Of a DNA stretch of 64,000 nt, positions 22,890 to 56,775 are shown piece after piece (within the stretch, counting starts at the first letter, position 1; each line of letters opens with the position of its first letter). The translations under genes and the position numbers were made by a program. Under the pieces are notes generated by a model. It saw only the letters and a list, made by a program, of their open reading frames with translations. It made no database searches and was not told where the DNA came from. This stretch comes from a plasmid, in sequence record NZ_CP031103.1; one strand, given 5' to 3'.

Positions 22890-22894
22890 GGCGC

Positions 22895-28875: not shown

Positions 28876-29519
28876 GCCTCTGCGGGCCTACACGGGGCAC
28901 TCATCACTGGCCGCACGGTTGATGAAGTAAGTCCATTCACTTCCTCTGCAGCGCTCCCTTCCATCGTCTCGCCGTCATTGAATATAAGCGACTTCCCCAT
29001 TACCCAGGCGAACTGGGTACGGCCTCCAGACAGCACCAACAACACCTGCCCATTAACGAGCTGGCTGATGGGCTCAATCACCGCAAAGCCCGTTGAGGTA
29101 TCCAGTATTTGGGTGTCGATGCCAACGCCGCAGATCTTCTCTGGAGTGAGCCTGCTCTCTACGTAGTCGTTAGCGGGTGATGCGAAGGCCATCAGAGCAC
29201 CCTCCCCATAGTACGCAGCATCCAGAGTTTATTCTGGCTGTCATCGGGTGTCTTATCGACGAAAAACGTCTGGTTTTGCTCTATCCAGTTGTTGGCGTCT
29301 TGCCAGTTGAAGTGCCAGTGAACTTTCGCCAGCTGGCTGATGAAATCGTCAGTGCGCACACACTGAAAACCCTTCGGATTGTTATGTATTGCTGCGACAA
29401 ATGCGCTATGAATTTCGTATCGGCGGACCATGATCTACGCTCCTTTTCACTGTTTTTATATACAGTATTTTTTATGAAAGTGTAGATCAAGGTGGTTTAC
29501 AAGATAGGCTGCTCTGTTC

Positions 29520-29936
29520 TTAATCGATGAAAAGCGCAGGTGAAATTCCAAAGCGCGCTGCCAGCGCTTTGATATGGTCTAATGATAATTTACGCTCGCC
29601 TTTAAGCACGCGAGATACCATCGATTTTCCGCCAATCTCCGGTAAGTCGGAGAATGTTAAATCATGTTGGCTTATAAGAGTGCGTAATACCGCAACGCCT
29701 GTAGGGATCGCGGCTAATCGCGCGTTAAATTCTGCATATTCCGGCGCGGTACTTTCGTATTCTTTAATTTTCGCAGCGACGATCTCAAAGAGTGGGTTGT
29801 CTGTATCGTTCGCGTCGAAAAGATTTTCTACAAATTCCAGCGCGGCGGCGTGCTGTTCTTCGGTATGAATCCCAGCGATGAAAGGCGCAACGGCAAAAAG
29901 CGCCGCGCCTGCTTTAGTGATTTCTGGCATGTTCAT
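29520..29936 (-). CDS. HigA-family antitoxin (C-terminal HTH)
   Basis: Family resemblance; coupled to upstream small toxin gene. Confidence 0.55.
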   Translation of the reverse strand: MNMPEITKAGAALFAVAPFIAGIHTEEQHAAALEFVENLFDANDTDNPLFEIVAAKIKEYESTAPEYAEFNARLAAIPTGVAVLRTLISQHDLTFSDLPEIGGKSMVSRVLKGERKLSLDHIKALAARFGISPALFID

Positions 29937-30172
29937 TTTATCTTTCCTTTCTTCGCTTTGGCGTTGAATACGTCATACTCTTTATGAGTAAAAATACCTT
30001 TTACGAAAACGATTTGATTAACAAAGTCGATTTTCAAAACAGCTCGCCATTCGTTATGACCGATATCGATAATGTAGTGTCTATTCAGATCCTTATGGTT
30101 GTCCAACGAGCGGAAAAATTTTCTTAGGTCTTCCGGCGTTGCGAAAGAGCCCTTTTCTATCGTCTTAGCCAT
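29933..30172 (-). CDS. small RelE/HigB-type toxin candidate
   Basis: 79-aa basic protein coupled upstream of HigA-like gene. Confidence 0.45.
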   Translation of the reverse strand: MAKTIEKGSFATPEDLRKFFRSLDNHKDLNRHYIIDIGHNEWRAVLKIDFVNQIVFVKGIFTHKEYDVFNAKAKKGKIK

Positions 30173-31990: not shown

Positions 31991-32037
31991 AACACTGGTC
32001 CCCTGAGAACTATGTATGTCTATCAGCTGGAGGTCAT

Positions 32038-32358
32038 ATGTCTTTACGTGGTACTGGAGAGTTTGTCCGTGACAGCATAATGGCTAATCGTCTGGCATTT
32101 AATGCACATAAAGAGCTTTATCATTTTCTTATGGCCGCTAATCAGTACGGCTTAAAAGCTATTGTAGATGAAACGACAACTTTGCTAATGGAAAGGGGTT
32201 ATGACTATTTGTCTGCGATCAACATGTCGGTCTCGCGGGCAAATTATTTATTTGAACTAGCAAAAGGCGAACAGAGGATTTATCAGGAGGTTAGAGGCCG
32301 CCTGGATAATTCTGGTGGTTTTCCCAGCGACGCCCCTTCACCAGATTGGCCAATATAG
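32038..32358 (+). CDS. hypothetical protein
   Basis: ORF starting MSLRGTGEF. Confidence 0.35.
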   Translation: MSLRGTGEFVRDSIMANRLAFNAHKELYHFLMAANQYGLKAIVDETTTLLMERGYDYLSAINMSVSRANYLFELAKGEQRIYQEVRGRLDNSGGFPSDAPSPDWPI

Positions 32359-32396
32359 CATCCAGATGTAGCCCCGCTTGGACGGGGCTTTCGTTA

Positions 32397-32702
32397 TTAC
32401 TTCCGAGTATTCCAATCATTAACTACTGATTGCATTGCCTTTTCATACTCTGAAAGCGCTTCCGCCTCTGTTCGCATCAAAGATGCCGTTTCGTGATATT
32501 CTCCTTTCATTGATGCCCCACAGCAACACTCGATCCAAAACACTGCAGTGCTGGTGATATTGCTGAGTTCCAAGTTATCTTTTTCCCCGCAAAAAGGGCA
32601 TGGCTTGAGGGTGTGACCATAATGTGAACCGTCATCCGAATAGCTCCCGCTATAGTCACCGGGAAGGCCATAAATTTGAATTTTTTCAGCACTGCCACAC
32701 AT
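32397..32702 (-). CDS. Lar-family restriction alleviation protein
   Basis: LKPCPFCG motif characteristic of Lar family. Confidence 0.55.
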   Translation of the reverse strand: MCGSAEKIQIYGLPGDYSGSYSDDGSHYGHTLKPCPFCGEKDNLELSNITSTAVFWIECCCGASMKGEYHETASLMRTEAEALSEYEKAMQSVVNDWNTRK

Positions 32703-32879
32703 TATTATGTTCTCCTATCGCTGTGTTACTTCAACCAACCTGTCTGCCAAAATTTTACAGAGCGCGGACTCAATTTTTTCTCTAGCCCGTCCTGCCAACA
32801 ATACAATCTTAATGTATTCAGTGCAGTATTAATTGCGATCCATGCCAGTCGCTGGGAAGAATCTTAGTCACAACACTAA

Positions 32880-33045
32880 AAAACGAGCAGGAACGTTTAA
32901 ATAGGGTTTACTCAAAAACTCAAATGAGTAAAAACACATTTATTCATTTACACATTCATTGTGATGCGATAAGGTTGGCACTCAAAAACTCATAACAGTA
33001 AATACTCATTTACTCATGAGAGTAAATGTAATGAAAAATGAGGCG
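32880..33045. repeat. partition-site-like repeats (ACTCAAATGAGTAAA / TTTACTCATTTACTCA motifs); further copies at 33680-33715 and 33960-34005
   Basis: Repeated motif flanking parA/parG. Confidence 0.55.
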
Positions 33046-33049
33046 CTAA

Positions 33050-33667
33050 ATGAAAGTTATCTCTTTTCTGAATCCTAAGGGCGGAAGCGGTAAAACTACC
33101 GTGACAATCAACGTTAGTACCAGCATTGCAAAAAAACATCGCGTAGCAGTTGTCGACACAGATCCACAGCAAAGCCTGGCTAACTGGAACAAAGCAGAAA
33201 AAGCAAACTTCGATGTTTTTACTGCAGCATCTGAGAAAGATGTCTATACCATCAGAAAAGAACTGGCGGACTATGACTATGTCATCATCGATGGTGCTGG
33301 CGCTCTTTCTGTTATAACTGCAGCTGCTGTGATGGTTAGTGACTTGGTCATCATTCCGGTTACGCCGTCACCTCTTGATTTTTCTGCCTCGGGTGCAGTT
33401 ATCAGTGTTCTTGAAGCACAGTCGTATAACAGACCGGTAGAATGCCGTTTCCTTATTACTCGCAAAATCGAGCAAGCAACAATGCTCACTGTGTTACGGG
33501 AAAGTATCGCTGCAACAGGTATCGCTTCCTTAAAGACTGCAATCACGCAGCGGCAGAGCTACGTTAAATCTGTGCTTGATGGCGAAACTGTATTTGATAC
33601 CAACGATGGTGCAGCGAAAGGCGAGATAGAAGTTCTGGCAGGTGAAATCCTCAAGTTAGTTGATTAA
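33050..33667 (+). CDS. parA: ParA-type small Walker ATPase (type Ib partition)
   Basis: KGGSGKTT deviant Walker A. Confidence 0.85.
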   Translation: MKVISFLNPKGGSGKTTVTINVSTSIAKKHRVAVVDTDPQQSLANWNKAEKANFDVFTAASEKDVYTIRKELADYDYVIIDGAGALSVITAAAVMVSDLVIIPVTPSPLDFSASGAVISVLEAQSYNRPVECRFLITRKIEQATMLTVLRESIAATGIASLKTAITQRQSYVKSVLDGETVFDTNDGAAKGEIEVLAGEILKLVD

Positions 33668-33701
33668 ATACACATTTACACATAAACTCAAATGAGTAAA
33701 T

Positions 33702-33959
33702 GTGTATTGGAGTAATTCGATGAGTTTAATAAAGCAGAATCGCAATCAGCCACCACCTGCAAAGGTGATGACTTTCGGTGAAAACAGAGACTTAAATAAA
33801 GTCATTTCGACAGCTCCCGCGGCTGTACAAAAGCGTGTGAACTTCAACATGCCAGAAGATAAACATCAAAGACTGAAAGCCGCATGTGCTCGAAAAGGAG
33901 CATCGATTTCTGACGTGATGAATGACCTTGTCGATGCATGGCTAAAAGATAATGAGTAA
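33702..33959 (+). CDS. ParG/RHH-type centromere-binding protein
   Basis: Small, follows parA, C-terminal RHH-like region. Confidence 0.55.
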   Translation: MYWSNSMSLIKQNRNQPPPAKVMTFGENRDLNKVISTAPAAVQKRVNFNMPEDKHQRLKAACARKGASISDVMNDLVDAWLKDNE

Positions 33960-34329
33960 ATGAGATTTTACTCCTAAACTCATTTACTCAAATGTTCATC
34001 GGGCTATTTGTCTACGCTTATCTAAATTGGGTTATGGTCAATGTTAGTTAACAAACCAAGAACTACGAGTCCGGTTCGAAGGATACAATCGTAGTGCTCG
34101 CCACAGCCTGTGACCGGGTTTGCCCGCGAACAGGCGAGGAAGCGCAATTGCTTAAGGATCTAAGGTAGCACTTACGCTCGAAACACGACCTTGCATATGC
34201 TTCTGTAGCATCATGATTACTATCAATTTTATCCACATATCCAACGGATAGATCAATTATTCAGATCAATATATAGATCATGTAAGTACAAAAGAGATCA
34301 CCCTTTCTATAAGCATATGATCCATAATT

Positions 34330-34450
34330 AAAAAAATAGGATCCTGACGGTTACTTTCATAAGAAAAGCGGTTACTTTCATGACCGTAGCGTTTACTTTC
34401 ATAACTGAGGCGGTTATTTTCATAACCTAGATGCGGTTACTATCATAATC
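34330..34450. repeat. replicon iterons (5x GCGGTTACTTTCATAA-like), DnaA box TTATCCACA at 34232-34240
   Basis: Seen in sequence. Confidence 0.75.
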
Positions 34451-34481
34451 ATGGCTGCTTTTACTCACTGGATGTGGATAA

Positions 34482-35354
34482 ATGGAAAATTCTGAAGCGC
34501 AGCAAAGTCCTTTTGCTATCAACAAGAAAGATTCTGGAGAAAGTTATGAACTGACTCCGAACAGTAATAAGACAGTTCAGCCTGTAGCTCTGTTACGTCT
34601 TAGCGTGTTTACTCCTGTGTCGCCAAAGGAAAAGGGAAAACGCGATTTTCTGATTGATGCTTCTGAAGAACTATCCAGCCTGGAGGTGGCTCGACAGGAA
34701 GGCTATACCAACATCAAAATTCAGGGCGCAAAGCTCGGCATGTCAACTGACTTTAAAACCTGGATTGGCATCATTTCTGCTTTCTCCAAGTACGGATATA
34801 CTGCGGATAAAATTTGTCTGCCGTTCTCTGAGTTTGCGAGGATGTGCGGCCTCCGGCCAACAGACATCAATGGGCGTGCCCGTAACCGGTTAAGTGAGGC
34901 GCTGTTTAATCTGTCCAGCGTTACTCTCTCGTTTCGTAGCCAGGATGGAAAGCGCAGCCTCGTTACCCACCTTGTGCAGCGTGCCCAGCTGGACATGGAT
35001 ACTAATATGGTCGAATTAGTCGGTGACCCAAGCCTCTGGGAATTATATCGCTACGATCATAAGGTTCTGCTTGGTCTGAAAGCACTCTCGGCACTCTCAC
35101 GTAAGGAGTCTGCTCAATCTCTCTATGTCTATTTCGAAAGCATGCCAGCAGGTACGCTGTACGTCTCTATGAAGCGTCTACGTGAAAGGCTTGCTATGGA
35201 ATCTCAGGTTAAAGACCAGAATTCAACCATACGACGTGCGATGAAGGATCTGAAGGGCATTGGTTATCTTGATTACAACGAAACCAAAAAAGGTCGGGAA
35301 ATCATGTTCATTGTTCATAACCGCTCGCCGCGACTCGCGTTGACCGTCGCGTGA
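34482..35354 (+). CDS. repA: RepFIB-type (Rep_3) replication initiator RepA
   Basis: Strong similarity to RepFIB RepA as recalled (TPNxNKTVQPVALxRLxVF...); iterons on both sides (second set 35356-35580). Confidence 0.85.
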   Translation: MENSEAQQSPFAINKKDSGESYELTPNSNKTVQPVALLRLSVFTPVSPKEKGKRDFLIDASEELSSLEVARQEGYTNIKIQGAKLGMSTDFKTWIGIISAFSKYGYTADKICLPFSEFARMCGLRPTDINGRARNRLSEALFNLSSVTLSFRSQDGKRSLVTHLVQRAQLDMDTNMVELVGDPSLWELYRYDHKVLLGLKALSALSRKESAQSLYVYFESMPAGTLYVSMKRLRERLAMESQVKDQNSTIRRAMKDLKGIGYLDYNETKKGREIMFIVHNRSPRLALTVA

Positions 35355-35611
35355 AGGCGGTCACATTCATAACAATGACGCTACAAGGCGGTCATATTCA
35401 TAATATTCCAATTAAAAGCGGTCGTTTTCATAAGTGCAGTCTATTCTGAGGGCTTTACGCCGGTCAGATGAGCCGAGTTTTATGAACGCAGCGATACCTT
35501 ATCTATGATCATGTTATGAAAGTAACCGCCAGTTATGAATGCTCCCGCCCATTTATGATAGTGACCGCTTTCCGTTGGATGTTAGTTAAGCCATTTTTAA
35601 CGTGAACAAGG

Positions 35612-36379
35612 CTAACGATTGCCGCGCAGGAGCTGCAGCGCATCCTGAGTATCGAGTGAGAACCGGACCTGCTGACTGGCGGCCACATCGAGCGCAAAAA
35701 TTTTCGTATACACCTCAGTCGACTCAAACTTCTCGTGCCCCATCAGGCCCTGGAGAACCTTGGGATGAACATGGCCATATAACAGGTGCATCGCGAAGCT
35801 GTGTCTGAACGTGTGCGGGCTGACCGGAATACTGAATCTCACCCCGTCCCGTTCTGCTGCCTCGACGGCACGCTCAAGCCAGTTGCGCACCGTGCGGTCG
35901 GTAACGCCCCAGACCGGCATGGCCCGGCGTTCACCTGTTAGCTTGTCGTCCTCGAATCTTTCCCGCGTGCTCGCAAACAGCCGACGCATTTCATCCACGT
36001 ATCCGGGATCTGACAGCGGGATCACCCGGTTCGCACTTTTTCCCTTTTTCGGGCGACCGCCAGCTGTGCGGCGTTGTTTAGCCGTACGGACCACCACGTG
36101 CGGGATCTCATCATTGAGGTGAAAGTCCCTTCTTCTGAGTGCCAGTGCTTCGTTGAGGCGTGCGCCGGTGTTCCACAGCGTGTTAATGAACGCGTGCTGG
36201 TTCCAGTCAGGAAGGTAATGCAGCAGGCCAGCCACTTCCGGCGCCAGAAGGTACTTCGGCATCTCGGTATAGTGCTTGGCCATTTCCCGTAGCGACAGTG
36301 CCCGTCCGTAGTCAAACGGTGCAGAAGTGGCAGTCACCTGCAGGGCAGGGGAGTGATGAACAAAAGCGGGCAGATTCAT
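35612..36379 (-). CDS. tyrosine site-specific recombinase (phage integrase family)
   Basis: R..HxxR..Y catalytic signature (HTFRHSFAMHLL...VYTKI). Confidence 0.8.
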   Translation of the reverse strand: MNLPAFVHHSPALQVTATSAPFDYGRALSLREMAKHYTEMPKYLLAPEVAGLLHYLPDWNQHAFINTLWNTGARLNEALALRRRDFHLNDEIPHVVVRTAKQRRTAGGRPKKGKSANRVIPLSDPGYVDEMRRLFASTRERFEDDKLTGERRAMPVWGVTDRTVRNWLERAVEAAERDGVRFSIPVSPHTFRHSFAMHLLYGHVHPKVLQGLMGHEKFESTEVYTKIFALDVAASQQVRFSLDTQDALQLLRGNR

Positions 36380-37202: not shown

Positions 37203-37970
37203 GGTAATGACTCCAACTTATTGATAGTGTTTTATGTTCAGATAATGCCCGATGACTTTGTCATGCAGCTCCACCGATTTTGAGAACGACAGCGACTTCC
37301 GTCCCAGCCGTGCCAGGTGCTGCCTCAGATTCAGGTTATGCCGCTCAATTCGCTGCGTATATCGCTTGCTGATTACGTGCAGCTTTCCCTTCAGGCGGGA
37401 TTCATACAGCGGCCAGCCATCCGTCATCCATATCACCACGTCAAAGGGTGACAGCAGGCTCATAAGACGCCCCAGCGTCGCCATAGTGCGTTCACCGAAT
37501 ACGTGCGCAACAACCGTCTTCCGGAGCCTGTCATACGCGTAAAACAGCCAGCGCTGGCGCGATTTAGCCCCGACGTAGCCCCACTGTTCGTCCATTTCCG
37601 CGCAGACGATGACGTCACTGCCCGGCTGTATGCGCGAGGTTACCGACTGCGGCCTGAGTTTTTTAAGTGACGTAAAATCGTGTTGAGGCCAACGCCCATA
37701 ATGCGGGCGGTTGCCCGGCATCCAACGCCATTCATGGCAATATCAATGATTTTCTGGTGCGTACCGGGTTGAGAGGCGGTGTAAGTGAACTGTAGCTGCC
37801 ATGTTTTACGGCAGTGAGAGCAGAGATAGCGCTGATGTCCGGCGGTGCTTTTGCCGTTACGCACCACCCCGTCAGTAGCTGAACAGGAGGGACAGCTGAT
37901 AGAAACAGAAGCCACTGGAGCACCTCAAAAACACCATCATACACTAAATCAGTAAGTTGGCAGCATCACC
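37203..37970 (-). mobile_element. insAB: IS1 copy 2 (insA 37640-37915, insB 37218-37721); no target duplication
   Basis: 768 bp with IS1 IRs. Confidence 0.9.
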
Positions 37971-38478
37971 CGAGTTTTTGGTGCATTCAAAGCTGTTCAC
38001 CATGAACAGATCGACAATGTAACAGTTGAACAGCATGTAACACCTAATAGAACAGGTGAAACCAGTAAAACAAAGCAACTAGCACATGAAATTGAACACC
38101 TGAGACAACTTGTTACAGCTCAACAGTCACACATAGACAGCCTGAAACAGGCGATGCTGCTTATTGAATCAAAGCTGCCGACAACACGGGAGCCAGTGAC
38201 GCCTCCCGTGGGGAAAAAATCATGGCAATTCTGGAAGAAATAGCGCTTTCAGCCGGCAAACCGGCTGAAGCCGGATCTGCGATTCTGATAACAAACTAGC
38301 AACACCAGAACAGCCCGTTTGCGGGCAGCAAAACCCGTACTTTTGGACGTTCCGGCGGGTTTTTGTGGCGAGTGGTGTTCGGGCGGTGCGCGCAAGATCG
38401 ATTATGTTAAAAACGACAGGATTCATGAAAATTATCAGAATTGTGCAGGATGGGAAAACCATCCTGCACACCCATTGA

Positions 38479-41400
38479 TTAGATATCTAATTTAGGGAGG
38501 TTATTGACAATTTTCTGAGTTTCCAGACTGACAGTGATAACTCGTAGGAACAGCTCTAATGGGTATCTAGGGTTATCCATTGTTTCTATTGCCCAGTCAT
38601 TAGCATCGTTCACAATACCGCTATCTTTATGGGTAGAGACACCTTGCCGCTCCATCACCCATTCAAGCGCAGGTTTTCCATTCACAATGTAGTCATAGGC
38701 TTCAATTGGAATGTTTTTTATGCGAATTTTACTGTTATAAATGACCGTGTCTTTTTCACCTTTTTTGGCAAATTTCATCTTCTCAACATAGAAATCGTCT
38801 TTACTCAACTGTGAGTAACTCAAAGAACCTGTGTCGATATCAGCTTTGTAGGGTTCAACTGTTTCATATTTTAAATGCAATTCAGCCAACTCACGACCAA
38901 AATTGGAAAAAATCAAAAAGTCATCAAATTTTTTAACACATGGAATGCGAGGTAATTCCTTAGTTAAATTATCAGCATATCTAAACCGATACTCCTCTGA
39001 GTGCAAAAGACCATAAATATAATAAAAAATATCTTCTTTTTTTATTATATTAGCTCCAGAGTAAAAATCATTGAATAACTTCAGGCAGTCATCAGTTATC
39101 GCATCAAACCTTTCCACATCATCAGACAATTGTTTTTTACTATACAAGTACAATGGAAAGCATTGAGCACCAGCATCCATTGAATTTAAATCAAATATAC
39201 AATTTGATATTATTGCTGAAAACCCTTTCTTACCACCAAGCCCCGTGATACAGATAATTACATTATCAGATTCATTACTCGGGAAGATCTGTGGCATTTG
39301 ATAAACACAGTTATTGAAGTGTCTATTGAAGTACATATGTTGTTTTGTGAAAGGCCTGTATAGTGATACTCTGAAATCATCATTTGAAATATCATGATAA
39401 TATCCCTTGGATACATCATTGAAAACTTCCCTTGTCCAACTCATTCTTTTTGAGTCTAATATAACAAAATCCTTTGGCTCATCAGTACCATTATATTTGC
39501 TATATCTTTCGACCTCTTCATTGTAGAAATGAATCATCCTTGATATATTTTTTTTAAGAGATGAAAGAGAATATTGATAGCACCAAGCATCTCTATTGGT
39601 TTTAACTCCATTGGAGTAGTTTTCAAAAACAAAAAAAGCACTTTTATTTTTTTTACTACCTAATTCAATAAAATCATTGAAGCTATCATCTCGCTGATTC
39701 AGCCAATCGTTGTAGGCATCTGGTGTGATTTTCTGCCAGCCATGCGTTTTCTCAATACCGTCAATACTGCCAAAATCGGAAATCGTCTCCAGCTTTTCTT
39801 CTTTTGTCAGGTAATCACCAATATCATGAAAATAAATCTGACCCGTCTGTGTTGCTACCGGATTTTTTACCAGAATAGCAATCACAATCGGCGTTCTTGT
39901 TCCCTGACCAAAAACGTTATCTTTTTCTTTGCGGCGAACCTCTCCTGACGTTCTAGCATTCCCTCTCAGATGGAAAAAATACAGGCTACTGAACTCTTCC
40001 GCCAGACACTTACGAAGTCCATCAGCCGAGTTAGAGTCGATATACCCGCCATTCGTGACAAATCCTATAACACCTTGTTCACCGATACGATCACTCGCCC
40101 AGCGTATTGCACGTATATATGAATCATAAAGCGAACTTTTCAATGTTGCAGTTGTGTATTTTGCATAGGTTAATTCAATTCTTTTATCTAGAAGAGGATA
40201 TTTTACATTAGCATTATTATCATTCCCTACACTTTGGCCTGACGAGTAAGGAGGGTTACCGATAATCACCCGAATATCCAGAGCCTTCTGCCGTTTACGA
40301 CGCTCACTGTTATCGACCAATACCGCACTGACCAGATCATCCTTCTCATACATTTCAAAGGTGTCAGTCAGACAAATCCCTTCAAACGGCGTGTACTCTG
40401 ATTCTTCCGTGATGCCGTGATACACCGCCTCAATATTAATAGCGGCAATGTAATAGGCTAACAGGACGATTTCGTTGGCATGGATTTCATTTTTAAACTT
40501 GTAAGCCAGTTTATCTGACGGGATCAGACCACTTTGCAGCAGACGGGTGATAAACGTACCGGTGCCGGTGAACGGGTCAAGAATATGCACACCTTTGTCG
40601 GCGAGTGTTTGTCCGAACTCCTGTTTCAGCACGTCATTCACGCTGTGAATAATAAAATCAACCACCTCAACAGGCGTATACACAATGCCCAGACGCTCCG
40701 TCATTCTCGGGAACGCATTTCTGAAAAACTTATCGTACAACTGTACGATAATCTGCTGCTTACCTTCTGCGGTGGTAATGCCGTCCGCACGCATTTTTAC
40801 CGACTCATAGAAGCTGTTCAGCGTGCTGGCTTCTTTTTCGAGATGATGCTCCTGCAACGTGTTAAGCACGTTCTGCATCGCCATACTCATCGGGTTATGG
40901 TCGGTAAAATTGTAATCCGCAAACAGGGCATCAAAAACCGGCTTGGTTATCAGGTGCTGAGCCAGCATTTCAATGATTTCATCATCGGAAACACTGTTAT
41001 TCAGGTCATCACGCAGTTCATCTGCAAATGCCCTGAAGGCACTGATTTCTATTTTATTCCCCGGATTTTCGAGAATGCCGTGAATGCGGTCGATATGTGT
41101 GCGGGCAATTTTAGCAATATCGTTCGCCCAGTCTTCCCAGTGATGCCGGTTACCGCATTTTTTAACGATTTTTGCGTACAGGGCGCGCTCAATCTCACCA
41201 ACGGAAAATTCAATATCAAACTGCTCAGGAGCGGGACTCACGGCTGAACCAATGCCACTGCTTTTACGCGCTTTTCCTGCTATCTCAGATTTTTTCGTCT
41301 GCCGTTTGGTTTTCTTCACCACTTTATCGGCTACCGCGATCACTTCCATTCTGCCGGTATCTTTACCGTTAAACTCCAGCTTGTTGATCATGGCATCAAA

Positions 41401-43368
41401 GCGGTCATCATGCGCCCTGAGTGCATTCAGCACCTGCCAGACAACACGGTAAGCCTGATTATTGTTCAACGCATTCTCCGGCTCTTCTCCGGCGGGAATG
41501 ACAACCGGCAGAATGACGTAGCCCAGCTCCTTACCTTCAGCACGCCGCATCACACGTCCGACAGACTGCACCACATCCACCTGAGAGCTTCTCGGCGTTA
41601 AAAACAACACCGCATCCAGAGAAGGCACATCCACGCCTTCAGATAAACAACGGACGTTAGACAATATCCGGCAGACATTTTCATCCGTGTCCGCTTTCAG
41701 CCATTCAATTTTGGATTTTTTCTCAGTGGCATTCATGCTGCCGTCAACGTGCTTCACCTGACACTGAAGTTTTAATGATGGGTCAATCGCCTTATCCGGT
41801 GCGGTTTCCCTGAGAAGTTCGATCTCGGATGCCTGATAAGCCTCAACCACTGCTCCGAACATTTCCGTGATCAGTTTAGAACTGACCTTATGCGTCTTTC
41901 CGCGAAAGTCTTTTTCTATCACCTGACAGAACGCAACAGCCCGTTTCATCGCATCAGGGTGAACGCCATCTGCCCCCGCCAGTCCCTGCTTTGCCAGTGC
42001 TTTCCAGCAACCCACAATCTTTGCCGCATCATCGACTTTGAGCTGATTATTTTCATCCTTCAGCAGAGACTGAATGCGGCGGCTGACATGCTTTTCTTCC
42101 ACGGCAAGCACAATAACTTTGTAATCACACAAAATGCCCAACTGGACGGCTTTAGAGAAGGTAATGACATACAAATCATCCCCATAAAGACTTTTGTCAT
42201 CCATTGAGCATAGGGTAACTCCCTCAGTCTCTTTCGCATCATCTCCAAAAATTCGTGGGGTCGCGGTCATGTACAGGCGTTTTTGACCGGCAATATAGGC
42301 ATTGTCGTGAATACGAACAAAGGCAGACTCATCATCCCCTTCAAAGGTGGCACCCGTTGTACGGTGGGCTTCATCACAAATGATGAAATCAAACGCAGGA
42401 AAACCCAGCTTTTGCGCCTGATGGATAACCTCAACAGAGTGGTAGGTAGAAAACACCACGTTCATATAAGGCGGCTTATCACTGCCGAAAATATCCGGCT
42501 GATTAAACGCTTTGACGAGGCTGTTCGCATTCGTGGTCGCCGGATATTTCAGGTCGCTGATACCAACAACGACATTGTCATCATGGTTTTTCTTACCCAC
42601 ATCACTGTCAGAGCAGACAGCAAAACAGCGCAGGTCTATCAGCGTATCCTGTGTCCATTCATCCAGCGTCTGACTCAACAATGCCAGACTGGGCACAAGG
42701 AACAGTACGGTTTTACCTCTTCCGGCAACGGCTTCAGCAATACGCAGAGAGGTGAAGGTTTTTCCTGTGCCGCACGCCATAATGAGCTTGCCCCGATCGG
42801 CAGTCGCCAGCCCTCTTTTAACGGCTTCAAGCGCGGGAGTCTGATGAGGCCGGAGTTGCTTTTTGGCTTTCATCACCGGCTTGTATGCCGGATCAAAATC
42901 GAATTGTGACCAGTCCAGTGCACTTTGTTCAAGGTCTGTCAGGCTTAACGCAGTGACAGGAACGGCCTTGTCACGCAGCATGTTTTTGGCTTCTTCCGTC
43001 CAGTTGTCCGTAGAGGCAACGATATAGCGAAGCGTAAAATACGTTTTATCGGAGGCAGCCAGAAAACTATCAATATCCTTTTTGGCGATTTTAGTCTGAT
43101 TGTAGTTTTTGCACTGGATAGCATGAAACTCCCCCGTTTTGGTTACGGCGACCAAATCAATGCCATCATCTTTTTTCTTCGTGATCCCAACGGTTTCACC
43201 GTACTGAGAAACCCATCCGCCATAGCTCAGCACGTCACTGTACAGCTCGGCATATTTAGGTTCATGGAGGAAATACTGCACACAAAGGTTTTCAAAGGTT
43301 GTACCTTTGTCCCGCTGTGTTGGTGAAGCCTGTTCAATTTTTGTCAGCAATGCAGAAAGTGCATTCAT
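38479..43368 (-). CDS. single-polypeptide Type ISP-like restriction-modification enzyme (1629 aa): N-terminal Mrr-like PD-(D/E)xK nuclease, SF2 DEAH ATPase, gamma-class N6-adenine MTase (NPPY), C-terminal target-recognition region
   Basis: DDGIDLVAVTKTGEFHAIQCK; MACGTGKTFTS / ICDEAHR / QSVGRVMRR; DPFTGTGTF and IIGNPPYSSG; AT-rich island. Confidence 0.7.
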   Translation of the reverse strand: MNALSALLTKIEQASPTQRDKGTTFENLCVQYFLHEPKYAELYSDVLSYGGWVSQYGETVGITKKKDDGIDLVAVTKTGEFHAIQCKNYNQTKIAKKDIDSFLAASDKTYFTLRYIVASTDNWTEEAKNMLRDKAVPVTALSLTDLEQSALDWSQFDFDPAYKPVMKAKKQLRPHQTPALEAVKRGLATADRGKLIMACGTGKTFTSLRIAEAVAGRGKTVLFLVPSLALLSQTLDEWTQDTLIDLRCFAVCSDSDVGKKNHDDNVVVGISDLKYPATTNANSLVKAFNQPDIFGSDKPPYMNVVFSTYHSVEVIHQAQKLGFPAFDFIICDEAHRTTGATFEGDDESAFVRIHDNAYIAGQKRLYMTATPRIFGDDAKETEGVTLCSMDDKSLYGDDLYVITFSKAVQLGILCDYKVIVLAVEEKHVSRRIQSLLKDENNQLKVDDAAKIVGCWKALAKQGLAGADGVHPDAMKRAVAFCQVIEKDFRGKTHKVSSKLITEMFGAVVEAYQASEIELLRETAPDKAIDPSLKLQCQVKHVDGSMNATEKKSKIEWLKADTDENVCRILSNVRCLSEGVDVPSLDAVLFLTPRSSQVDVVQSVGRVMRRAEGKELGYVILPVVIPAGEEPENALNNNQAYRVVWQVLNALRAHDDRFDAMINKLEFNGKDTGRMEVIAVADKVVKKTKRQTKKSEIAGKARKSSGIGSAVSPAPEQFDIEFSVGEIERALYAKIVKKCGNRHHWEDWANDIAKIARTHIDRIHGILENPGNKIEISAFRAFADELRDDLNNSVSDDEIIEMLAQHLITKPVFDALFADYNFTDHNPMSMAMQNVLNTLQEHHLEKEASTLNSFYESVKMRADGITTAEGKQQIIVQLYDKFFRNAFPRMTERLGIVYTPVEVVDFIIHSVNDVLKQEFGQTLADKGVHILDPFTGTGTFITRLLQSGLIPSDKLAYKFKNEIHANEIVLLAYYIAAINIEAVYHGITEESEYTPFEGICLTDTFEMYEKDDLVSAVLVDNSERRKRQKALDIRVIIGNPPYSSGQSVGNDNNANVKYPLLDKRIELTYAKYTTATLKSSLYDSYIRAIRWASDRIGEQGVIGFVTNGGYIDSNSADGLRKCLAEEFSSLYFFHLRGNARTSGEVRRKEKDNVFGQGTRTPIVIAILVKNPVATQTGQIYFHDIGDYLTKEEKLETISDFGSIDGIEKTHGWQKITPDAYNDWLNQRDDSFNDFIELGSKKNKSAFFVFENYSNGVKTNRDAWCYQYSLSSLKKNISRMIHFYNEEVERYSKYNGTDEPKDFVILDSKRMSWTREVFNDVSKGYYHDISNDDFRVSLYRPFTKQHMYFNRHFNNCVYQMPQIFPSNESDNVIICITGLGGKKGFSAIISNCIFDLNSMDAGAQCFPLYLYSKKQLSDDVERFDAITDDCLKLFNDFYSGANIIKKEDIFYYIYGLLHSEEYRFRYADNLTKELPRIPCVKKFDDFLIFSNFGRELAELHLKYETVEPYKADIDTGSLSYSQLSKDDFYVEKMKFAKKGEKDTVIYNSKIRIKNIPIEAYDYIVNGKPALEWVMERQGVSTHKDSGIVNDANDWAIETMDNPRYPLELFLRVITVSLETQKIVNNLPKLDI

Positions 43369-43709
43369 CGTTGATATCCTTAATGTCCTTTATTTGCTGG
43401 GGTTATCAGATCCCCCCGACACGTTTAATTAATGCTTTCTCCGCCGGAGATCGACGCACAGCGTTCTGTGCTCTATGATGTTATTTCTTAATAATCATCC
43501 AGGTATTCTCTTTATCCCCTTTATCACCATACGTAGTGCGAGTGTCCACCTTAACGCAGGGCTTTCCGTCACAGCGCGATATGTCAGCCAGCGGGGCTTT
43601 CTTTTGCCAGACCGCTTCCATCCTCTGCATTTGGGGTTTGAGGAGTAACGGAACAGTAAACGCCGTTAAGAAGTCAATTTAAATAGCCATTAATATACTA
43701 ATCAATAAA

Positions 43710-45040
43710 TTACCCCTCTTCATTGAAAACTCTCAGCTCCCCCTTACTGACGGATTCCGGCACTGTAAATGAATAGCGGGACTCCTTGTATTTGATGCCC
43801 AGCATCTTGATAGCCACCATCACCAGCGACAGGTGCTCCGGATCTTTCATGGCAAGCCGGGCCATTTCGGCATCGGTCGCCAGCGCCTGGAAGCCCATCG
43901 AGAAGACCTCTGTTCTAGTTGTGCCCTCAATGCCCAGTTCGCCGTAGACCTTGCCCACATAACCGGTTCGGCGCGTTTATCGGTGTGCCGTAAGGCAGGT
44001 TGACAGTCGTGGCCAGTTTGTTGGTGACTTTCACTTTGCCGACGAGGGGTCCGGCCCGGTTCACGACGGGAGGACGGCAGATCGGGAAGGTCACTGGCGC
44101 GGGTGGTTCGACCCACGCCCAGGCGGCTGCTACGCGCGCGCTCAGGACCCGACTGGCGGCTCTTTCTGCGCGGGCCGGTTTCCCTGTCTGCAGTACGGCC
44201 AAACGGTCTCTTACCCCTGCCTTTGGTACCCTTCCGGCCCTTACGGCCACGCTTATCCCCCCTTTCACCGATCCAGTCCTTCACCTTGTCACCGACCACA
44301 TCGGTCAGGCTGCGCGGCTTCGTTTTGGACGAATCAATCAGCGCGTCCAGACGGTCGATCACCTCGCTGTGCTGCTCTTTGCTCTGCGCATCCTCCTTAC
44401 GGCGGATCGCGTCCAGGCGGGCGCTTTCGGTTTGCTCCTGGTTTTTCTTCTCCCCGATCCCGATGGTGCTGGCGGGCTTCGGTTCGGCGTTGGCCGCATT
44501 CGCTGGTGTGGCTGGTGGCGTGTCCGGCGTGGCATCACCCGCGCCCGGTTCGCTCCCGGCCTGTCCGCCAAACGGCCGCTTGAGCGCGCCCCATAGCTTC
44601 AGCGCCTTATCTTTGGCGTAGGCTTTAGCGCGCTTCGTACTGCTGATATCACGCTCGGAAAGCGCTTCCTTGACCTCATCCGCCATACCTTTGGCTTCTT
44701 TGGCGGCCATCCAGAAAGAACTTCCCACGGCCACGCCTGCAGTATCTGCCGCCTCGGTTCCGGCCAGTTGGTTTCCATCCTTGCCACCCAGCAGACCTAC
44801 CGCCCGTTTCAGCAGTGACGATGAGCCACCAGCTGATGACTCCTCATCGTCGTCGCCGCGACTGGAGCTGCGGTTAAAGCGGCGGATCTCCACCTTGTTG
44901 GCAAAGCGGCCGTCATCACCCAAATAAAATCCGTTGGCGCGGTTGCCATTCCGTGGTGGTGAATCGGCGACAGTGCGTGCGGGTTTTGGTGTCGCGGGTG
45001 CAGCCTCATCGGTCAGGTGGAGTGCATCGGTCCTTGGCAC
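43710..45040 (-). CDS. Ala/Gly/Lys-rich hypothetical protein; 397-aa ORF with out-of-frame C-terminus, probably continuing in 43710-43958 ORF (frameshift about 43850-43960)
   Basis: Overlapping same-strand ORFs; low-complexity composition. Confidence 0.35.
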
Positions 45041-45090
45041 ATCGCCCCGTAAATCAGCAGCAATACACGGGACTCGTCACGCAGCTGAGC

Positions 45091-45480
45091 CTAGTCGATT
45101 TCATATACCGCCTTACCGTTGTCGCCCGGGTAATACAGACCGCCCATTGCCGTCAGCGCGCGGTAACGCTCCATGGCCAGCGCGAGAACCGGCCGATCGT
45201 CAGCTGTCTTGTCATCGAGGCGCACGCGGTAACCCAGACCGGTCATCAGCCCCGTCGGGTCCTCAATCATGATCGTGGCATCGAACGCGCCTGACGCGTT
45301 ACGCACCGCCATAGCTTACAGACGCTCGCGGATCTTCACAATCGAGCCTGGTAGTGGTGTCAGGGCGATAACGTGAAGGGCGTTGGTGGTGAGCGTACCG
45401 GTCAGCATGACAGGTGCCTGCCGGGTGGCCAGTGAGACGGCCACTACGTTAATGGGCGCAGATGTTGATTGACTCAAAGT
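45091..45480 (-). CDS. hypothetical protein(s); two ORFs in the same frame separated by a single TAA (45313-45315)
   Basis: Manual translation. Confidence 0.3.
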
Positions 45481-45867
45481 TTGCCCCTTAAAAAAAGAGC
45501 GCCCGAAGGCGCCTAAACCGTTACCGTTAATGAGTCGAAAATAGAACGGAATTACTACAACAGAGGTGACGGCTCCTATCGTCTTTCGGGCCGTCAAAAT
45601 CAATGTTACACAACAAGGTTAGGATGTGTAAATTGCCAATAACCCCAGTTTGTGACACCGCGCACGCATGAAGGGCGGGGCGCCTCGCAGCCATGTCGGG
45701 CTGGTGGCCAGCGCCGCGAACCGAACACAACACGGAAAAAGCATTGTATTTGCTCGCGTCATCCTCTACGAATTCCTTGCTTCTTGATGCGGACCTGCTG
45801 CAAAGCAGGACACCGGCTCAATTACGACCCCCTGGCCTCGGCCGGGGGTTTTCGTTTCTACGGCCGG

Positions 45868-46544
45868 TTACGCCGTCTTATCAGCCTCACCACCCTGACG
45901 TTTCTTCGCCGCGCGGCTGCGTGATTTCCGCGGGACTTCTGTCGGTTTCTCCTCCGCATTATCTGCCTCCACGGGCGGCGCCGGTTGTGCCACTTCAGGC
46001 TCCACTACCGCCGGGTTCGGGTTACCTGCTGCGAGTGTAGCCATCCGCTGGGCGATAAATTGATGGCGGTCATAGTCCGCAATGTCCTTCATGCGACCCA
46101 GCGTAGCGTTGAGATTGCCGTTGCGGGACATATGGACACAGCCCAGCATCCCATCAGCATTTCATTCACTGGCGTCTGGTCAACACGGACTTCGCCGATC
46201 GAACGGGCGACGGCATCGAGCACAACTTCGAAGTGATCCGGGCTGAGACGGAAGATAGCCACCATCAGGCTGGAAATGGCGTTTGCTACACCAACAGAGA
46301 GGGGATCACGGCCGTGGGACTTGTCAGCCACCGCGTTATTGACGCAGTGCTGCAGGAAGTTGCCTGCCATCGCGCTGCGCAGGACCTCTGACGGGTCTGC
46401 CTCTTCCATGGCCTGGGCCGATTCTGGCAGTGGATTCGGGTCCTGTGGTGGCAATGGCTGCAGGTCGGTTTCAGCAATGACTTCTGGCTGAGTTAATTCT
46501 TGCATGATTATTCCTTTCGGGGCTGGGTTATTTACACTACACAA
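45868..46544 (-). CDS. hypothetical acidic protein, split into two overlapping ORFs (frameshift about 46090-46150)
   Basis: ORF track. Confidence 0.35.
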
Positions 46545-46657
46545 TTATGATCTGCGTCTTAGGATGTTTTGTGCAGCATATCTGTCTGTAAGTCCTGAGC
46601 AAGGGGCCTTTTGTCTTTAAGCGTTAATGGCCACCAGCTCATACACTCGGAGAGCGC

Positions 46658-47536
46658 ATGATCCTGACCCAACCGAAAAAGACCGCTGTGCTGTACCACA
46701 ACGACGCCGACGGCTTCGCGTCAGCCCTTGCCGCCTGGCTTAGATACGGCGAGGAGGCCCATTACATCCCGGTTCGCTACGGTGAGCCGGTACCGCCGCT
46801 GCCGAACGGTACCCTCGAGGTATTCATCCTTGATTTCAGCTACAACCGCAAGACGTGTGACCATCTGGCCAGCAAGTACCTCCTGCAGGTGATCGATCAC
46901 CACCAGACCGCGCGTGACGAACTGGCCGGGGCCGTGTATGCCATCTTCGACATGAGTCGCGCCGGTTGTGAGCTCGCCTGGGCGTTTTTCCACCCGGATA
47001 AGCCGCTGCCGGACCTGCTGGCCTACGTCGCCGATCGGGATTTGTGGAAATGGGCGCTGCCGAACTCGCAGGAGGTCAACGCCTGGGTGGCCATCCTGCC
47101 GCCGACCTTCGAACGCTGGGCGGAGGTGCTGCGCGACGGCATCGGTGAGCGGGAAATGACGATGGGCTCGGCGTTGCTGGCCAACCAGGAGCGCCAGCTG
47201 CACGCCCTGGCCCGACAGGCCCGGTTTACCATCTTGTTCGGCAAACCGGCCGCCGTGGTGAACAGTGCGCTGCTGCATTCCGAGCTGGGCCACCTGCTGG
47301 CCACTATGCACCCGCAGCTGGCGCTGGTGGCGGTGTATAACGATCTGCCGGACGGCTCGCGTAAGTATTCCCTGCGTACCCACCGTGACAACCTCGATGT
47401 GAGCGCGCTGGCGCGCCAGTTCGGAGGCGGTGGCCATCGCCGGGCAGCGGGCTTCGTCCTGCCAGCTAACCTGGAGCAGCGGCTCGGCGGCGAACTGGCC
47501 ACGAACCTGCAGGCGGCAAAAGGAGTCGAATCATGA
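46658..47536 (+). CDS. DHH/DHHA1-family phosphoesterase (NrnA-like)
   Basis: DHH motif (VIDHHQT) and DHHA1 GGGH motif (FGGGGHRRAAG). Confidence 0.7.
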   Translation: MILTQPKKTAVLYHNDADGFASALAAWLRYGEEAHYIPVRYGEPVPPLPNGTLEVFILDFSYNRKTCDHLASKYLLQVIDHHQTARDELAGAVYAIFDMSRAGCELAWAFFHPDKPLPDLLAYVADRDLWKWALPNSQEVNAWVAILPPTFERWAEVLRDGIGEREMTMGSALLANQERQLHALARQARFTILFGKPAAVVNSALLHSELGHLLATMHPQLALVAVYNDLPDGSRKYSLRTHRDNLDVSALARQFGGGGHRRAAGFVLPANLEQRLGGELATNLQAAKGVES

Positions 47537-47769
47537 TCGGCTGGCTGAAGGAAAGGATCAAATGGTGGGTAGACGGTAAAGAAATGGCGGAGCTCAACCG
47601 CTGGCGCTTCCAGCATAACTATTACCGCTTGTGCCTGTATGACATTCAGCCGATACGCGAAACGCTGGAAAGCCTGCAGGCCCGGGTAAACATGAAGTCC
47701 GTAGACTTCGGCCCTGGGCCTTATGGTGTAGACGGTATCCGGGCTCGCTGGCAGGCAACCCGTAAATAA
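47533..47769 (+). CDS. hypothetical protein coupled (ATGA) to DHH gene
   Basis: ORF. Confidence 0.4.
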   Translation: MIGWLKERIKWWVDGKEMAELNRWRFQHNYYRLCLYDIQPIRETLESLQARVNMKSVDFGPGPYGVDGIRARWQATRK

Positions 47770-47948
47770 ATACGAAATAATATAATTGCATTACAAATAA
47801 GTCTTACTTGTAACTATTATTGCGAGTAAGACTTTAATTATGCCGCCGTCTGCTGGCGATGGTAATAGCTATGCGTAATAACATCCGTATCTGCTTAATA
47901 ACTTCTCTTTTAACGCTCTCTACGTTGAATAGTCATGCCTTCGATATT

Positions 47949-48716
47949 GGGTAATGACTCCAACTTATTGATAGTGTTTTATGTTCAGATAATGCCCGAT
48001 GACTTTGTCATGCAGCTCCACCGATTTTGAGAACGACAGCGACTTCCGTCCCAGCCGTGCCAGGTGCTGCCTCAGATTCAGGTTATGCCGCTCAATTCGC
48101 TGCGTATATCGCTTGCTGATTACGTGCAGCTTTCCCTTCAGGCGGGATTCATACAGCGGCCAGCCATCCGTCATCCATATCACCACGTCAAAGGGTGACA
48201 GCAGGCTCATAAGACGCCCAGCGTCGCCATAGTGCGTTCACCGAATACGTGCGCAACAACCGTCTTCCGGAGCCTGTCATACGCGTAAAACAGCCAGCGC
48301 TGGCGCGATTTAGCCCCGACATAGCCCCACTGTTCGTCCATTTCCGCGCAGACGATGACGTCACTGCCCGGCTGTATGCGCGAGGTTACCGACTGCGGCC
48401 TGAGTTTTTTAAGTGACGTAAAATCGTGTTGAGGCCAACGCCCATAATGCGGGCGGTTGCCCGGCATCCAACGCCATTCATGGCCATATCAATGATTTTC
48501 TGGTGCGTACCGGGTTGAGAAGCGGTGTAAGTGAACTGCAGTTGCCATGTTTTACGGCAGTGAGAGCAGAGATAGCGCTGATGTCCGGCGGTGCTTTTGC
48601 CGTTACGCACCACCCCGTCAGTAGCTGAACAGGAGGGACAGCTGATAGAAACAGAAGCCACAGGAGCACCTCAAAAATACCATCATACACTAAATCAGTA
48701 AGTTGGCAGCATCACC
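47949..48716 (-). mobile_element. insAB: IS1 copy 3; insB split by a 1-bp deletion in a C-run (about 48217)
   Basis: Compared with copy 2: gcccc vs gccc. Confidence 0.85.
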
Positions 48717-48817
48717 GAAGGCAGGATAGATTTGTTAATCGCGATCGGAGATCATCAGTCACAACAGAGCTCCCTGCGTTATGAGGGGTCGTCTCAGAAT
48801 TCGGAAAATAAAGCACG

Positions 48818-49273
48818 CTAAGGCGTAGTCACCCCGTGACTCCCCCGCGCCGATGCAGCGAGCTTCGTTCCGTCTTGCAGTGACGCAATCAGCGGGCAGG
48901 AAACGTTCCCTTTCCGCGCATGGCAGGCGCACACCAGTTCAGACAGCACGGCCTCCATGCGTGCCAAGTCGGCCATCTTCTCGCGCACATCCTTGAGCTT
49001 GTGCTCGGCCAGGCCGCTGGCTTCCTCGCAATGGGTGCCATCCTCCAGCCGCAGTAGCTCGGCGATTTCGTCCAGGCTAAAGCCCAGCCGCTGGGCCGAT
49101 TTCACGAACCGCACTCGTGTTACATCCGCCTCGCCATAGCGGCGAATGCTGCCATAGGGCTTGTCTGGCTCCGGCAGCAGGCCCTTGCGCTGGTAGAACC
49201 GGATGGTCTCCACATTGACCCCGGCCGCCTTGGCAAAAACGCCAATGGTCAGATTCTCAAAATTAATTTGCAT
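48818..49273 (-). CDS. merR: MerR mercuric-responsive regulator
   Basis: Family recognition; stop codon inside IR as in Tn21/Tn501. Confidence 0.9.
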
Positions 49274-49344
49274 ATCGCTTGACTCCGTACATAACTACGG
49301 AAGTAAGCTTAAGCTATCCAAACCAAATTTGAAAGGACAAGCGT

Positions 49345-49740
49345 ATGTCTGAACCACAAAAGTCTGAACCACAAAAGTCTGAACCACAAAAGTCTGAACC
49401 ACAAAACGGGCGCGGCGCGCTCTTCGCCGGTGGGCTGGCCGCCATTCTTGCGTCGGCCTGCTGCCTGGGGCCGCTGGTTTTGATCGCCTTGGGGTTCAGC
49501 GGGGCATGGATCGGCAACCTGACGGTGCTGGAACCCTATCGCCCGATCTTCATCGGCGCAGCGCTGGTCGCGCTGTTTTTCGCCTGGCGGCGCATCTACC
49601 GCCCGGCGCAAGCCTGCAAACCGGGTGAGGTCTGCGCGATTCCCCAAGTGCGAGCTACTTACAAGCTCATTTTCTGGATCGTGGCCGCGCTGGTCCTGGT
49701 CTCGCTCGGATTTCCCTACGTCATGCCATTTTTCTATTAA
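49345..49740 (+). CDS. merT: MerT mercuric transport protein with N-terminal 3x extra SEPQK repeat
   Basis: Otherwise canonical MerT (MSEPQNGRGALFAGGLAAILASACCLGPLV...). Confidence 0.9.
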   Translation: MSEPQKSEPQKSEPQKSEPQNGRGALFAGGLAAILASACCLGPLVLIALGFSGAWIGNLTVLEPYRPIFIGAALVALFFAWRRIYRPAQACKPGEVCAIPQVRATYKLIFWIVAALVLVSLGFPYVMPFFY

Positions 49741-49755
49741 TCACAGGAGTTCATC

Positions 49756-50031
49756 ATGAAAAAACTGTTTGCCGCCCTCGCCCTCGCTGCCGTTGTTGCC
49801 CCCGTGTGGGCCGCCACCCAGACCGTCACGCTGTCCGTGCCTGGCATGACCTGCGCCTCTTGCCCGATCACTGTCAAGCACGCGCTTTCCAAGGTTGAGG
49901 GCGTGAGCAAGACCGACGTAAGTTTCGACAAGCGCCAGGCCGTCGTCACCTTCGACGATGCCAAGACCAACGTCCAGAAGTTGACCAAGGCGACCGAGGA
50001 CGCGGGCTATCCGTCCAGCCTCAAACGCTGA
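49756..50031 (+). CDS. merP: MerP periplasmic mercury-binding protein
   Basis: GMTCASCP motif. Confidence 0.9.
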   Translation: MKKLFAALALAAVVAPVWAATQTVTLSVPGMTCASCPITVKHALSKVEGVSKTDVSFDKRQAVVTFDDAKTNVQKLTKATEDAGYPSSLKR

Positions 50032-50058
50032 TCCGTTAACCGAACTCGGGAGCGACAC

Positions 50059-52208
<2,150 letters not shown>

Positions 52209-52225
52209 GGAAAAGGAGGTGTTCA

Positions 52226-52591
52226 ATGAGCGCCTACACAGTGTCCCGGCTGGCCCTTGATGCCGGGGTGAGCGTGCATATCGTGCGCGACTACCTGCTG
52301 CGCGGATTGCTACGGCCGGTCGCGTACACCACGGGCGGCTACGGCTTGTTCGATGACACCGCGTTGCAACGGCTGCGCTTTGTACGGGCTGCCTTCGAAG
52401 CGGGTATCGGCCTGGACGCACTGGCGCGGCTGTGCCGGGCGCTGGATGCTGCGGACGGTGACGGTGCGTCTGCGCAGCTTGCCGTGTTGCGGCAACTCGT
52501 CGAGCGTCGGCGCGAGGCCCTGGCCAGCCTCGAAATGCAACTGGCCGCCATGCCAACCGAACCGGCACAGCACGCGGAGAGTCTGCCATGA
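52226..52591 (+). CDS. merD: MerD secondary regulator
   Basis: Family recognition. Confidence 0.85.
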
Positions 52592-52824: not shown

Positions 52825-52889
52825 CCGCTTCCCAGCCAGCCGAGAGTGGGCAGCTTTGAGCTTCGCTACCAATCTGGAGGAGTACCACC

Positions 52890-56764: not shown

Positions 56765-56775
56765 CGTGCTTTATT

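Follow-up and report, generated by a model that had tools for sequence, protein, structure and literature searches.

The plasmid with the sequence record NZ_CP031103.1 carries, in the stretch of 64,000 nt analyzed here (hereafter, the window), one very long open reading frame (ORF) that the first-pass annotation, made from the nucleotide sequence alone, had assigned to a single-chain restriction-modification enzyme in a horizontally acquired island. The locus raises the questions of what this 1629-aa protein does, whether it needs partners, how its gene entered the plasmid, and which DNA sequence it recognizes. According to the analysis described below, the gene (hereafter, the ISP gene) very probably encodes a functional-looking Type ISP enzyme, namely, one polypeptide predicted to recognize, methylate, translocate along, and cut DNA.

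Domains, catalytic residues, and predicted mode of action

The ORF was found exactly as described, on the (-) strand. The Pfam search revealed six domains in one chain, in the order nuclease, superfamily 2 (SF2) ATPase, coupler, methyltransferase (MTase), and target recognition domain (TRD), so that both Mrr_cat and N6_Mtase, for which a domain search had been proposed as a check, were detected. The gene and its domains are as follows:

38479..43368, (-) strand: Type ISP restriction-modification gene, 1629 aa, intact; a single uninterrupted ORF with an ATG start
42895..43263, (-) strand: Mrr_cat_2, Mrr-family PD-(D/E)xK nuclease (aa 36-158, Pfam E 9e-33)
42253..42861, (-) strand: ResIII/DEAD, first RecA-like lobe of the SF2 helicase-like ATPase (aa 170-372, Pfam E 1e-23)
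41542..41772, (-) strand: Helicase_C, core of the second RecA-like lobe (aa 533-609, Pfam)
40762..41142, (-) strand: ISP_coupler, PF22240 (aa 743-869, Pfam E 8e-49)
39991..40755, (-) strand: gamma-class N6-adenine methyltransferase (N6_Mtase, aa 872-1046; the Eco57I-type match extends to aa 1126)
38551..39630, (-) strand: Type_ISP_C, target recognition domain (aa 1247-1606, Pfam E 1.5e-108)

The sequence motifs named in the first-pass annotation were all located in these domains. In the SF2 ATPase, they are GTGKT (aa 200-204), DEAH (332), and motif VI QSVGRVMR (601), to which TATP (368) can be added; in the MTase, motif I FTGTGTF (933) is followed by motif IV NPPY (1038). Such a set of motifs is far beyond chance.

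The phmmer search against the PDB database showed that the protein aligns over nearly its entire length with the solved structures of LlaBIII (4xqk, 1259 bits over aa 14-1629) and LlaGI-deltaN (5ffj, 1216 bits over aa 165-1629). Together with the domains and the catalytic residues, this alignment bears out the proposed LlaGI/LlaBIII architecture. Both prototypes, LlaBIII of the Lactococcus lactis plasmid pJW566 and LlaGI of pEW104, are likewise plasmid-borne and contain the six domains in identical order; the catalytic residues of the nuclease, ATPase, and MTase, as well as both intercalating residues, are common to the three enzymes. In contrast to the prototypes, the present enzyme comes from an enterobacterial host (Leclercia) and from a plasmid of the ColE10 type, its recognition domain differs from both of theirs, its base-reading residues are mixed, and a different target is expected.

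As for individual residues, the nuclease triad D67/D71/K87, of the form D...D...(Q)xK, aligns with D74/D78/K94 of LlaGI and LlaBIII (alignment to 4xqk), residues whose replacement by alanine one at a time eliminates nuclease activity (PMC3553963). The Walker A residue K203 corresponds to LlaGI K210, for which data on the K210A substitution are available (PMC3553963). The residues N1038, Y1041, and F1153 correspond to N1018, Y1021, and F1133 of the LlaGI methyl-transfer pocket, and the intercalating R1139 and R1158 correspond to LlaGI R1119 and R1138 (PMC4872093). The base-flipping and intercalating residues F1153, R1139, and R1158 are conserved and lie just outside the Pfam MTase match. Every LlaGI or LlaBIII residue named in the literature was confirmed at the expected aligned position. 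Judging by its sequence, the protein bears no sign of decay, and all catalytic residues tested in this way are conserved.

An exact look-up identified the protein as RefSeq WP_114388509.1, "type ISP restriction/modification enzyme", of unclassified Leclercia, and the same protein was found on at least 7 contigs with the same neighbor genes. The enzyme is therefore an already annotated member of a well-understood family, and its correct name is already in RefSeq.

Enzymes of the Type ISP class have an asymmetric target of 6-7 bp, which is methylated on one strand.

The mode of action expected for the protein is taken from the biochemistry of LlaGI and LlaBIII (PMC3553950, PMC3553963, PMC4872093). 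The clamp formed by the MTase and TRD would bind a short asymmetric site and flip one adenine, which, in the presence of S-adenosylmethionine, would be methylated on a single strand only. If the site is unmodified, the SF2 motor would hydrolyze ATP, thereby freeing the enzyme from the site and driving its one-directional translocation downstream. When two sites are oriented head-to-head, the converging enzymes would collide and their Mrr nucleases would nick the strands repeatedly, so that both strands would end up broken at non-specific positions between the two sites. After replication, host DNA would survive because one site of each head-to-head pair stays methylated. The enzyme is expected to act alone, since only rep and mob genes accompany the gene on its native 9.5-kb plasmids, which are described in the next section. 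For those who transform or phage-type Leclercia and Enterobacter strains that contain the plasmid, a restriction barrier is predicted.

Capture of the gene and alternative explanations

The gene was proposed to have been acquired horizontally and to lie beside IS1. Both proposals hold: the gene is situated in a fragment of a small plasmid, which is truncated on one side by an IS1 copy and on the other by a Tn3-family inverted repeat (IR). The elements concerned are the following:

37971..43632, strand not assigned: fragment of a ColE10-type MOBQ small plasmid, 5.66 kb; homology with 9.5-kb plasmids runs over exactly this span
37203..37970, strand not assigned: IS1 copy b, left border of the fragment, which it abuts; 509 bp past the ISP stop codon
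43633..43670, (+) strand: Tn3-family-type 38-bp terminal inverted repeat GGGGTTTGAGG...CGTTAAG, right border, inside mobX
47950..48716, strand not assigned: IS1 copy c, oriented like copy b, to which it has 99% identity
38442..38470, (-) strand: hairpin with an 11-bp stem, GTGCAGGATGG/CCATCCTGCAC, which begins 9 nt past the ISP stop codon

A Megablast search against the PLSDB database identified 27 related plasmids, mostly 9.5-kb MOBQ plasmids with a ColE10 replicon, from E. coli, Klebsiella, Citrobacter, Morganella, and other bacteria; the related gene on them is also annotated as "type ISP restriction/modification enzyme". Plasmids of this group (NZ_CP047474.1, NZ_CP075726.1, LC663735.1) show ~92-94% nucleotide identity outside the recognition region and have the same flanking DNA, whereas only a 5.66-kb piece is present here, embedded in a large plasmid. 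On the small plasmids, the ISP gene is found beside genes of a Rep3 initiator, a small DNA-binding protein, MobA, MobX, and TraD. The fragment itself comprises the 3' remnant of an HTH_17 gene, truncated where the fragment meets IS1 copy b, the ISP gene, the native 112-bp upstream spacer, and the 3' ~150 bp of mobX. It is 89% identical throughout to the related plasmid L001 and 94% identical to the plasmid L002 outside the recognition domain. The closest DNA was found in contigs from metagenomes and read archives (L014-L016): a variant with 4 substitutions is located there on intact ColE10-type plasmids of 9.2-9.55 kb, and the DNA of L014 is 98.7% identical to the window at 38142-43632, including the recognition domain. 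Plasmids of this kind are the donor type. No match to the ISP gene was obtained in the phage collection, and a search of this collection with the 22-kb surroundings gave IS1 only; thus, the gene does not come from a sequenced phage. Taken together with the borders of the fragment, the sequence comparisons indicate that the gene arrived on a ColE10-type mobilizable plasmid and that a 5.66-kb piece of it was fixed, between IS1 and a Tn3-family IR, in a large plasmid that is a mosaic with a backbone of phage origin.

The Tn3-type IR pattern has only one other match in the window (0.01 expected by chance), a 38-bp repeat (48785-48822) overlapping with the 5' end of the merR ORF, at the end of the mer operon. 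A sequence of 146 bp that opens with the IR at the fragment border (43633-43778) occurs at ~92% identity in 111 PLSDB plasmids, of which 83 are mobilizable and many belong to Shigella; this sequence has no attached transposase and could be half of a Tn3-derived miniature element.

IS1 copies b and c bound a module of ~11-11.5 kb, which recurs as a unit elsewhere. A 40-kb contig that carries WP_114388509.1 is 99.8% identical to the window at 37805-53211. In addition, the module (window 37203-48313) was found at 99.6% identity at positions 4571-20400 of a 4.62-Mb Leclercia contig (L008, GCA_019584355.1), which is presumably a chromosome. There, it lies between chromosomal-looking genes (an EcpD-type fimbrial gene, ecotin, and Mqo) and is accompanied by a gene of a 733-aa AAA_13/SMC_N ATPase, absent from the window, and by another IS1. 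No clean target duplication was found around this copy, in a region that is complex and partly masked. As for a composite transposon formed by copies b and c in the window, no target-site duplication was common to their outer or inner flanks.

The capture route, in which a ColE10-type fragment was fixed in a phage-derived plasmid with IS1 on one side and a Tn3-family end on the other, is only mildly new. Nevertheless, it provides a clean example of how a defense gene passed from a small mobilizable plasmid to a large resistance plasmid of phage descent via IS1 and a Tn3-family end, the module having then reached the 4.6-Mb Leclercia contig.

Of the explanations that compete with a working Type ISP enzyme, the one that survives best, although it is improbable, is that the gene is intact but silent or restriction-dead here, as a passenger relic or a methylase-only remnant after the capture of the ColE10 fragment. 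Several observations that speak for it also weigh against the reading preferred here. The genes mobA and most of mobX, which lie upstream of the ISP gene and are co-oriented with it on ColE10-type plasmids, were lost. The 264 bp kept upstream of the gene revealed no convincing sigma-70 promoter; a sigma-70 consensus scan of 37900-43900 gave 12 promoter-like sites against 10.4 expected, and none of them was upstream of the gene on its strand. In a sister copy of the region, the metagenome contig L006 (JGI 3300011620), in which the plasmid region is 99.97% identical, an IS3-family element of 1243 bp (HTH_Tnp_1 and rve; L006 6118-7360, corresponding to ~41937-41945 of the window) interrupts the gene near aa 475, with 9 bp repeated at the junctions; this disruption implies that the gene is dispensable to the plasmid and may be costly. 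Two further points concern the preferred reading only: the literature searched contains no experiments on this protein, whose activity, expression, and target sequence are therefore predicted, and the target proposed below depends on aligning pairs of sequences where the protein varies most and on a partial recognition code, with conflicting hints at position +4.

The silent-gene explanation is opposed by the state of the gene. The ORF is of full length with all tested catalytic residues intact, and the protein is only 4 residues away from the allele on intact ColE10-type plasmids and is maintained in identical form on the contigs mentioned above. The native 112-bp spacer is kept, as are an AGGA ribosome-binding site 8 nt 5' of the ATG and the downstream hairpin. 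The latter, which is also kept in ColE10-type plasmids, is likely the transcription terminator of the gene; a simple terminator scan missed it because its T-tract is weak. A functional-looking Type ISP enzyme therefore remains the preferred explanation.

Second, the protein might be an MmeI- or DrdV-like enzyme (Type IIL/IIG), motorless and cutting at a fixed distance from its site, which we consider very unlikely. The best PADLOC model for the protein, matched over its full length with 2276 bits, is labeled "REase_MTase_IIG", and phmmer aligned the MTase-TRD half with a 1029-residue PDB chain (7lo5, 498 bits). By length and by published similarity, this chain is consistent with the Type IIL enzyme DrdV. 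The MTase and recognition domains are homologous in the two enzymes, and the DrdV site is asymmetric and methylated on one strand. However, Type IIL enzymes have no translocase and cleave near the site via multimer assembly, whereas in the present protein the SF2 ATPase is complete (motifs I, II, III, and VI). In a Type IIL enzyme, the nuclease is fused directly to the MTase-TRD part; here, the motor and the ISP coupler, both lacking in Type IIL enzymes, intervene. The nuclease is of the Mrr rather than the MmeI type, and the full-length alignment with LlaBIII also contradicts a motorless enzyme. Since a fused Type I model comes second in PADLOC (1472 bits), the IIG label seems to reflect database naming.

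Finally, the protein could be the methyltransferase or helicase part of BREX, DISARM, or another multi-gene system and would then need partner genes. The N6_Mtase fold, common to PglX-like methyltransferases, and weak PADLOC matches to the mad2 and PbeA models over parts of the protein could be cited for this explanation. It is practically negligible, since the 7 neighboring ORFs gave no PADLOC matches and no PglZ, BrxC, BrxL, or DrmA-C partners, the gene is flanked by IS1, by truncated forms of a plasmid gene and of mobX, and by the truncated SLT-protein remnant, and only rep and mob genes lie beside it on the native plasmids.

Recognition domain and predicted target

The Type ISP enzyme of the window belongs to a large natural series, in which the proteins differ almost only in their DNA-reading elements. 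When it was compared with 45 cluster representatives at least 90% identical to it over aa 1-1000, the median pairwise identity was 94% over this part and 40% over aa 1251-1450, in which the 45 relatives formed 38 types at 90% identity; the source database was clustered at 90%, which enriches for differing sequences. The same relation is known for the prototypes, since LlaGI and LlaBIII are conserved in the N-terminal three quarters and have swapped recognition domains.

In nucleotide comparisons with four related plasmids, identity moves back and forth between ~90% and 100% along most of the gene and collapses in two regions. The first (40033-40332) holds Loop I and Loop II of the MTase, which belong to the DNA readers; the second (38933-39732) corresponds to the core and jaw of the recognition domain, while its guide subdomain is conserved. 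In LlaGI and LlaBIII, MTase loops I and II and the core and jaw are the base-reading elements (PMC4872093).

The core/jaw region (38933-39732) has a GC content of 32% here and of 32-34% in every allele examined (the window, L001, L002, L003, L007, and L014, which are only ~40% identical there), against 48% in the first 1000 codons. This AT-rich region explains the drop in GC content seen in the first-pass annotation, which gave ~40% GC for the island and above 55% for the backbone. The first value is roughly right for the gene (43.7%), whereas the second overstates the uniformity of the backbone, as the mean of the window is 53% and its 1-kb bins span 35%-65%. The low GC content of the core/jaw suggests a shared AT-rich pool of recognition cassettes or, otherwise, a compositional constraint. 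What the enzyme recognizes is determined by a TRD cassette that is AT-rich and recombines.

The closest full-length relative, an allele from E. coli (P0001), is 96% identical over aa 1251-1350, so that the jaw and the beginning of the core are common to both alleles, and only 36-48% identical over aa 1351-1450. This drop after ~aa 1350, just before the Loop V readers, points to a breakpoint inside the core. Sequences similar to the recognition domain above ~74% nucleotide identity were found in none of the PLSDB plasmids and in none of the complete E. coli genomes. A protein-database search with the TRD alone returned short fragments and missed known full-length relatives, which makes it unusable for claims of absence. 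A new specificity derived from a chimeric recognition domain is probable and would also be mildly new; that this specificity has not yet been recorded for any Type ISP enzyme and arose by recombination within the recognition domain is a tentative and rather doubtful proposal. If it is true, the ColE10-type plasmids as a family constitute a natural library of enzymes with chimeric sub-domains, which could be used to complete the recognition code.

The amino-acid-to-base recognition code of Kulkarni et al., called partial by its authors, was applied to the putative reader residues. N1395, which corresponds to LlaBIII N1360, suggests A at +3. At +4, K1256 (LlaBIII K1231) suggests G, in conflict with N1258, which occupies LlaGI position 1228 and suggests A. 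The hints for +5 are N1353 at LlaGI position 1326, indicating T, and Y1356 (LlaBIII Y1321), indicating C, and for +6, R1313 (LlaGI R1286) suggests G. As for -1, A1138 and N1151 fit enzymes with "no C at -1", and R1145 at position 1125 hints at G. The aligned readers thus seem to be mixed, LlaBIII-like at +3 and +4 and LlaGI-like at +6. With low confidence, the target may be predicted as roughly 5'-(G)TNAG(Y)G-3', where G at -1 is possible. The series as a whole is raw material for decoding and engineering Type ISP specificity.

Host plasmid and neighboring elements

The whole element had been described as a phage-plasmid. Segments of the window at 1-5650, 21130-25447, 26264-29971, and 45015-46084 are 92-96% identical to the Leclercia plasmid pM17-63 (the range noted for the backbone as such is 93-96%) and encode a terminase large subunit, a second terminase-like protein, a DHH phosphoesterase, a kinase, and members of other PHROG families. 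This part of the description stands, and the term is fair as a description of ancestry. It does not extend to a complete phage: no capsid or tail genes were found in the window, the SLT-protein remnant is truncated, and the element may be a defective phage-plasmid, for which virion formation is doubtful. A search of the phage collection with window positions 1-25000 gave only IS110-family elements. The replicons also differ, since pM17-63 has a RepB/MipZ module in place of the ParA/Rep3 replicon of the window. The rest of the window consists largely of heavy-metal and mercury transposons, IS110-family elements, and three IS1 copies. The IS110-family elements are three copies of the IS4321/IS5075 type (1.35 kb, >99% identical) at 5721-7094, 19755-21131, and 56755-58125, which flank the arsenic/chromate and mercury transposon regions.

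The following genes were also considered:

43847..45040, (-) strand: ORF of 397 aa, 62.6% GC, directly upstream of the ISP fragment; SLT-protein remnant
32397..32702, (-) strand: Lar-family restriction-alleviation gene (Pfam PF14354 Lar_restr_allev, E 1.1e-10; PHROG 599)
35612..36379: tyrosine recombinase, after the Rep3 module

The ORF at 43847..45040 has no match in Pfam, NCBIfam, PADLOC, or PHROG. Its residues ~11-337 are 64% identical to residues ~226-550 of a protein of 1197 aa, whose C-terminal domain is an SLT transglycosylase, and overall it aligns to residues ~200-550 of SLT-domain proteins of 1000-1200 aa, with its C-terminal ~60 residues unmatched. Only identical or near-identical copies were found in the protein-database search, and the ORF adjoins the ISP fragment on the contigs examined. 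A single-sequence AlphaFold model of this protein had a predicted local distance difference test (pLDDT) score of 54 and a predicted template modeling (pTM) score of 0.23 and was not used for a fold search. The ORF is a truncated remnant of a large SLT-domain protein. On the other side of the gene, an 83-aa ORF at 38220..38471 on the (-) strand was treated as spurious; it has no family match and overlaps the conserved HTH_17 remnant on the opposite strand.

A Lar-like anti-restriction gene, reported a few kilobases away, was found at a distance of 5.8 kb by Pfam; a CxxC...CxxC regular expression missed it. The gene is part of a low-GC (42-44%) module at 32000-35400 together with ParA (33050-33667) and a Rep3-type initiator (34482-35354). 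The tyrosine recombinase gene and IS1 separate this module from the ISP fragment, to which it is unrelated.

On the backbone, a HigB-type toxin gene (29933..30172, (-) strand) overlaps the start of an HTH_3 gene (29520..29936, (-) strand), the two being likely a toxin-antitoxin pair. Beside them lies the divergent IS1 copy a, the only IS1 copy in the window with a target duplication (8 bp, TGAAATTA).

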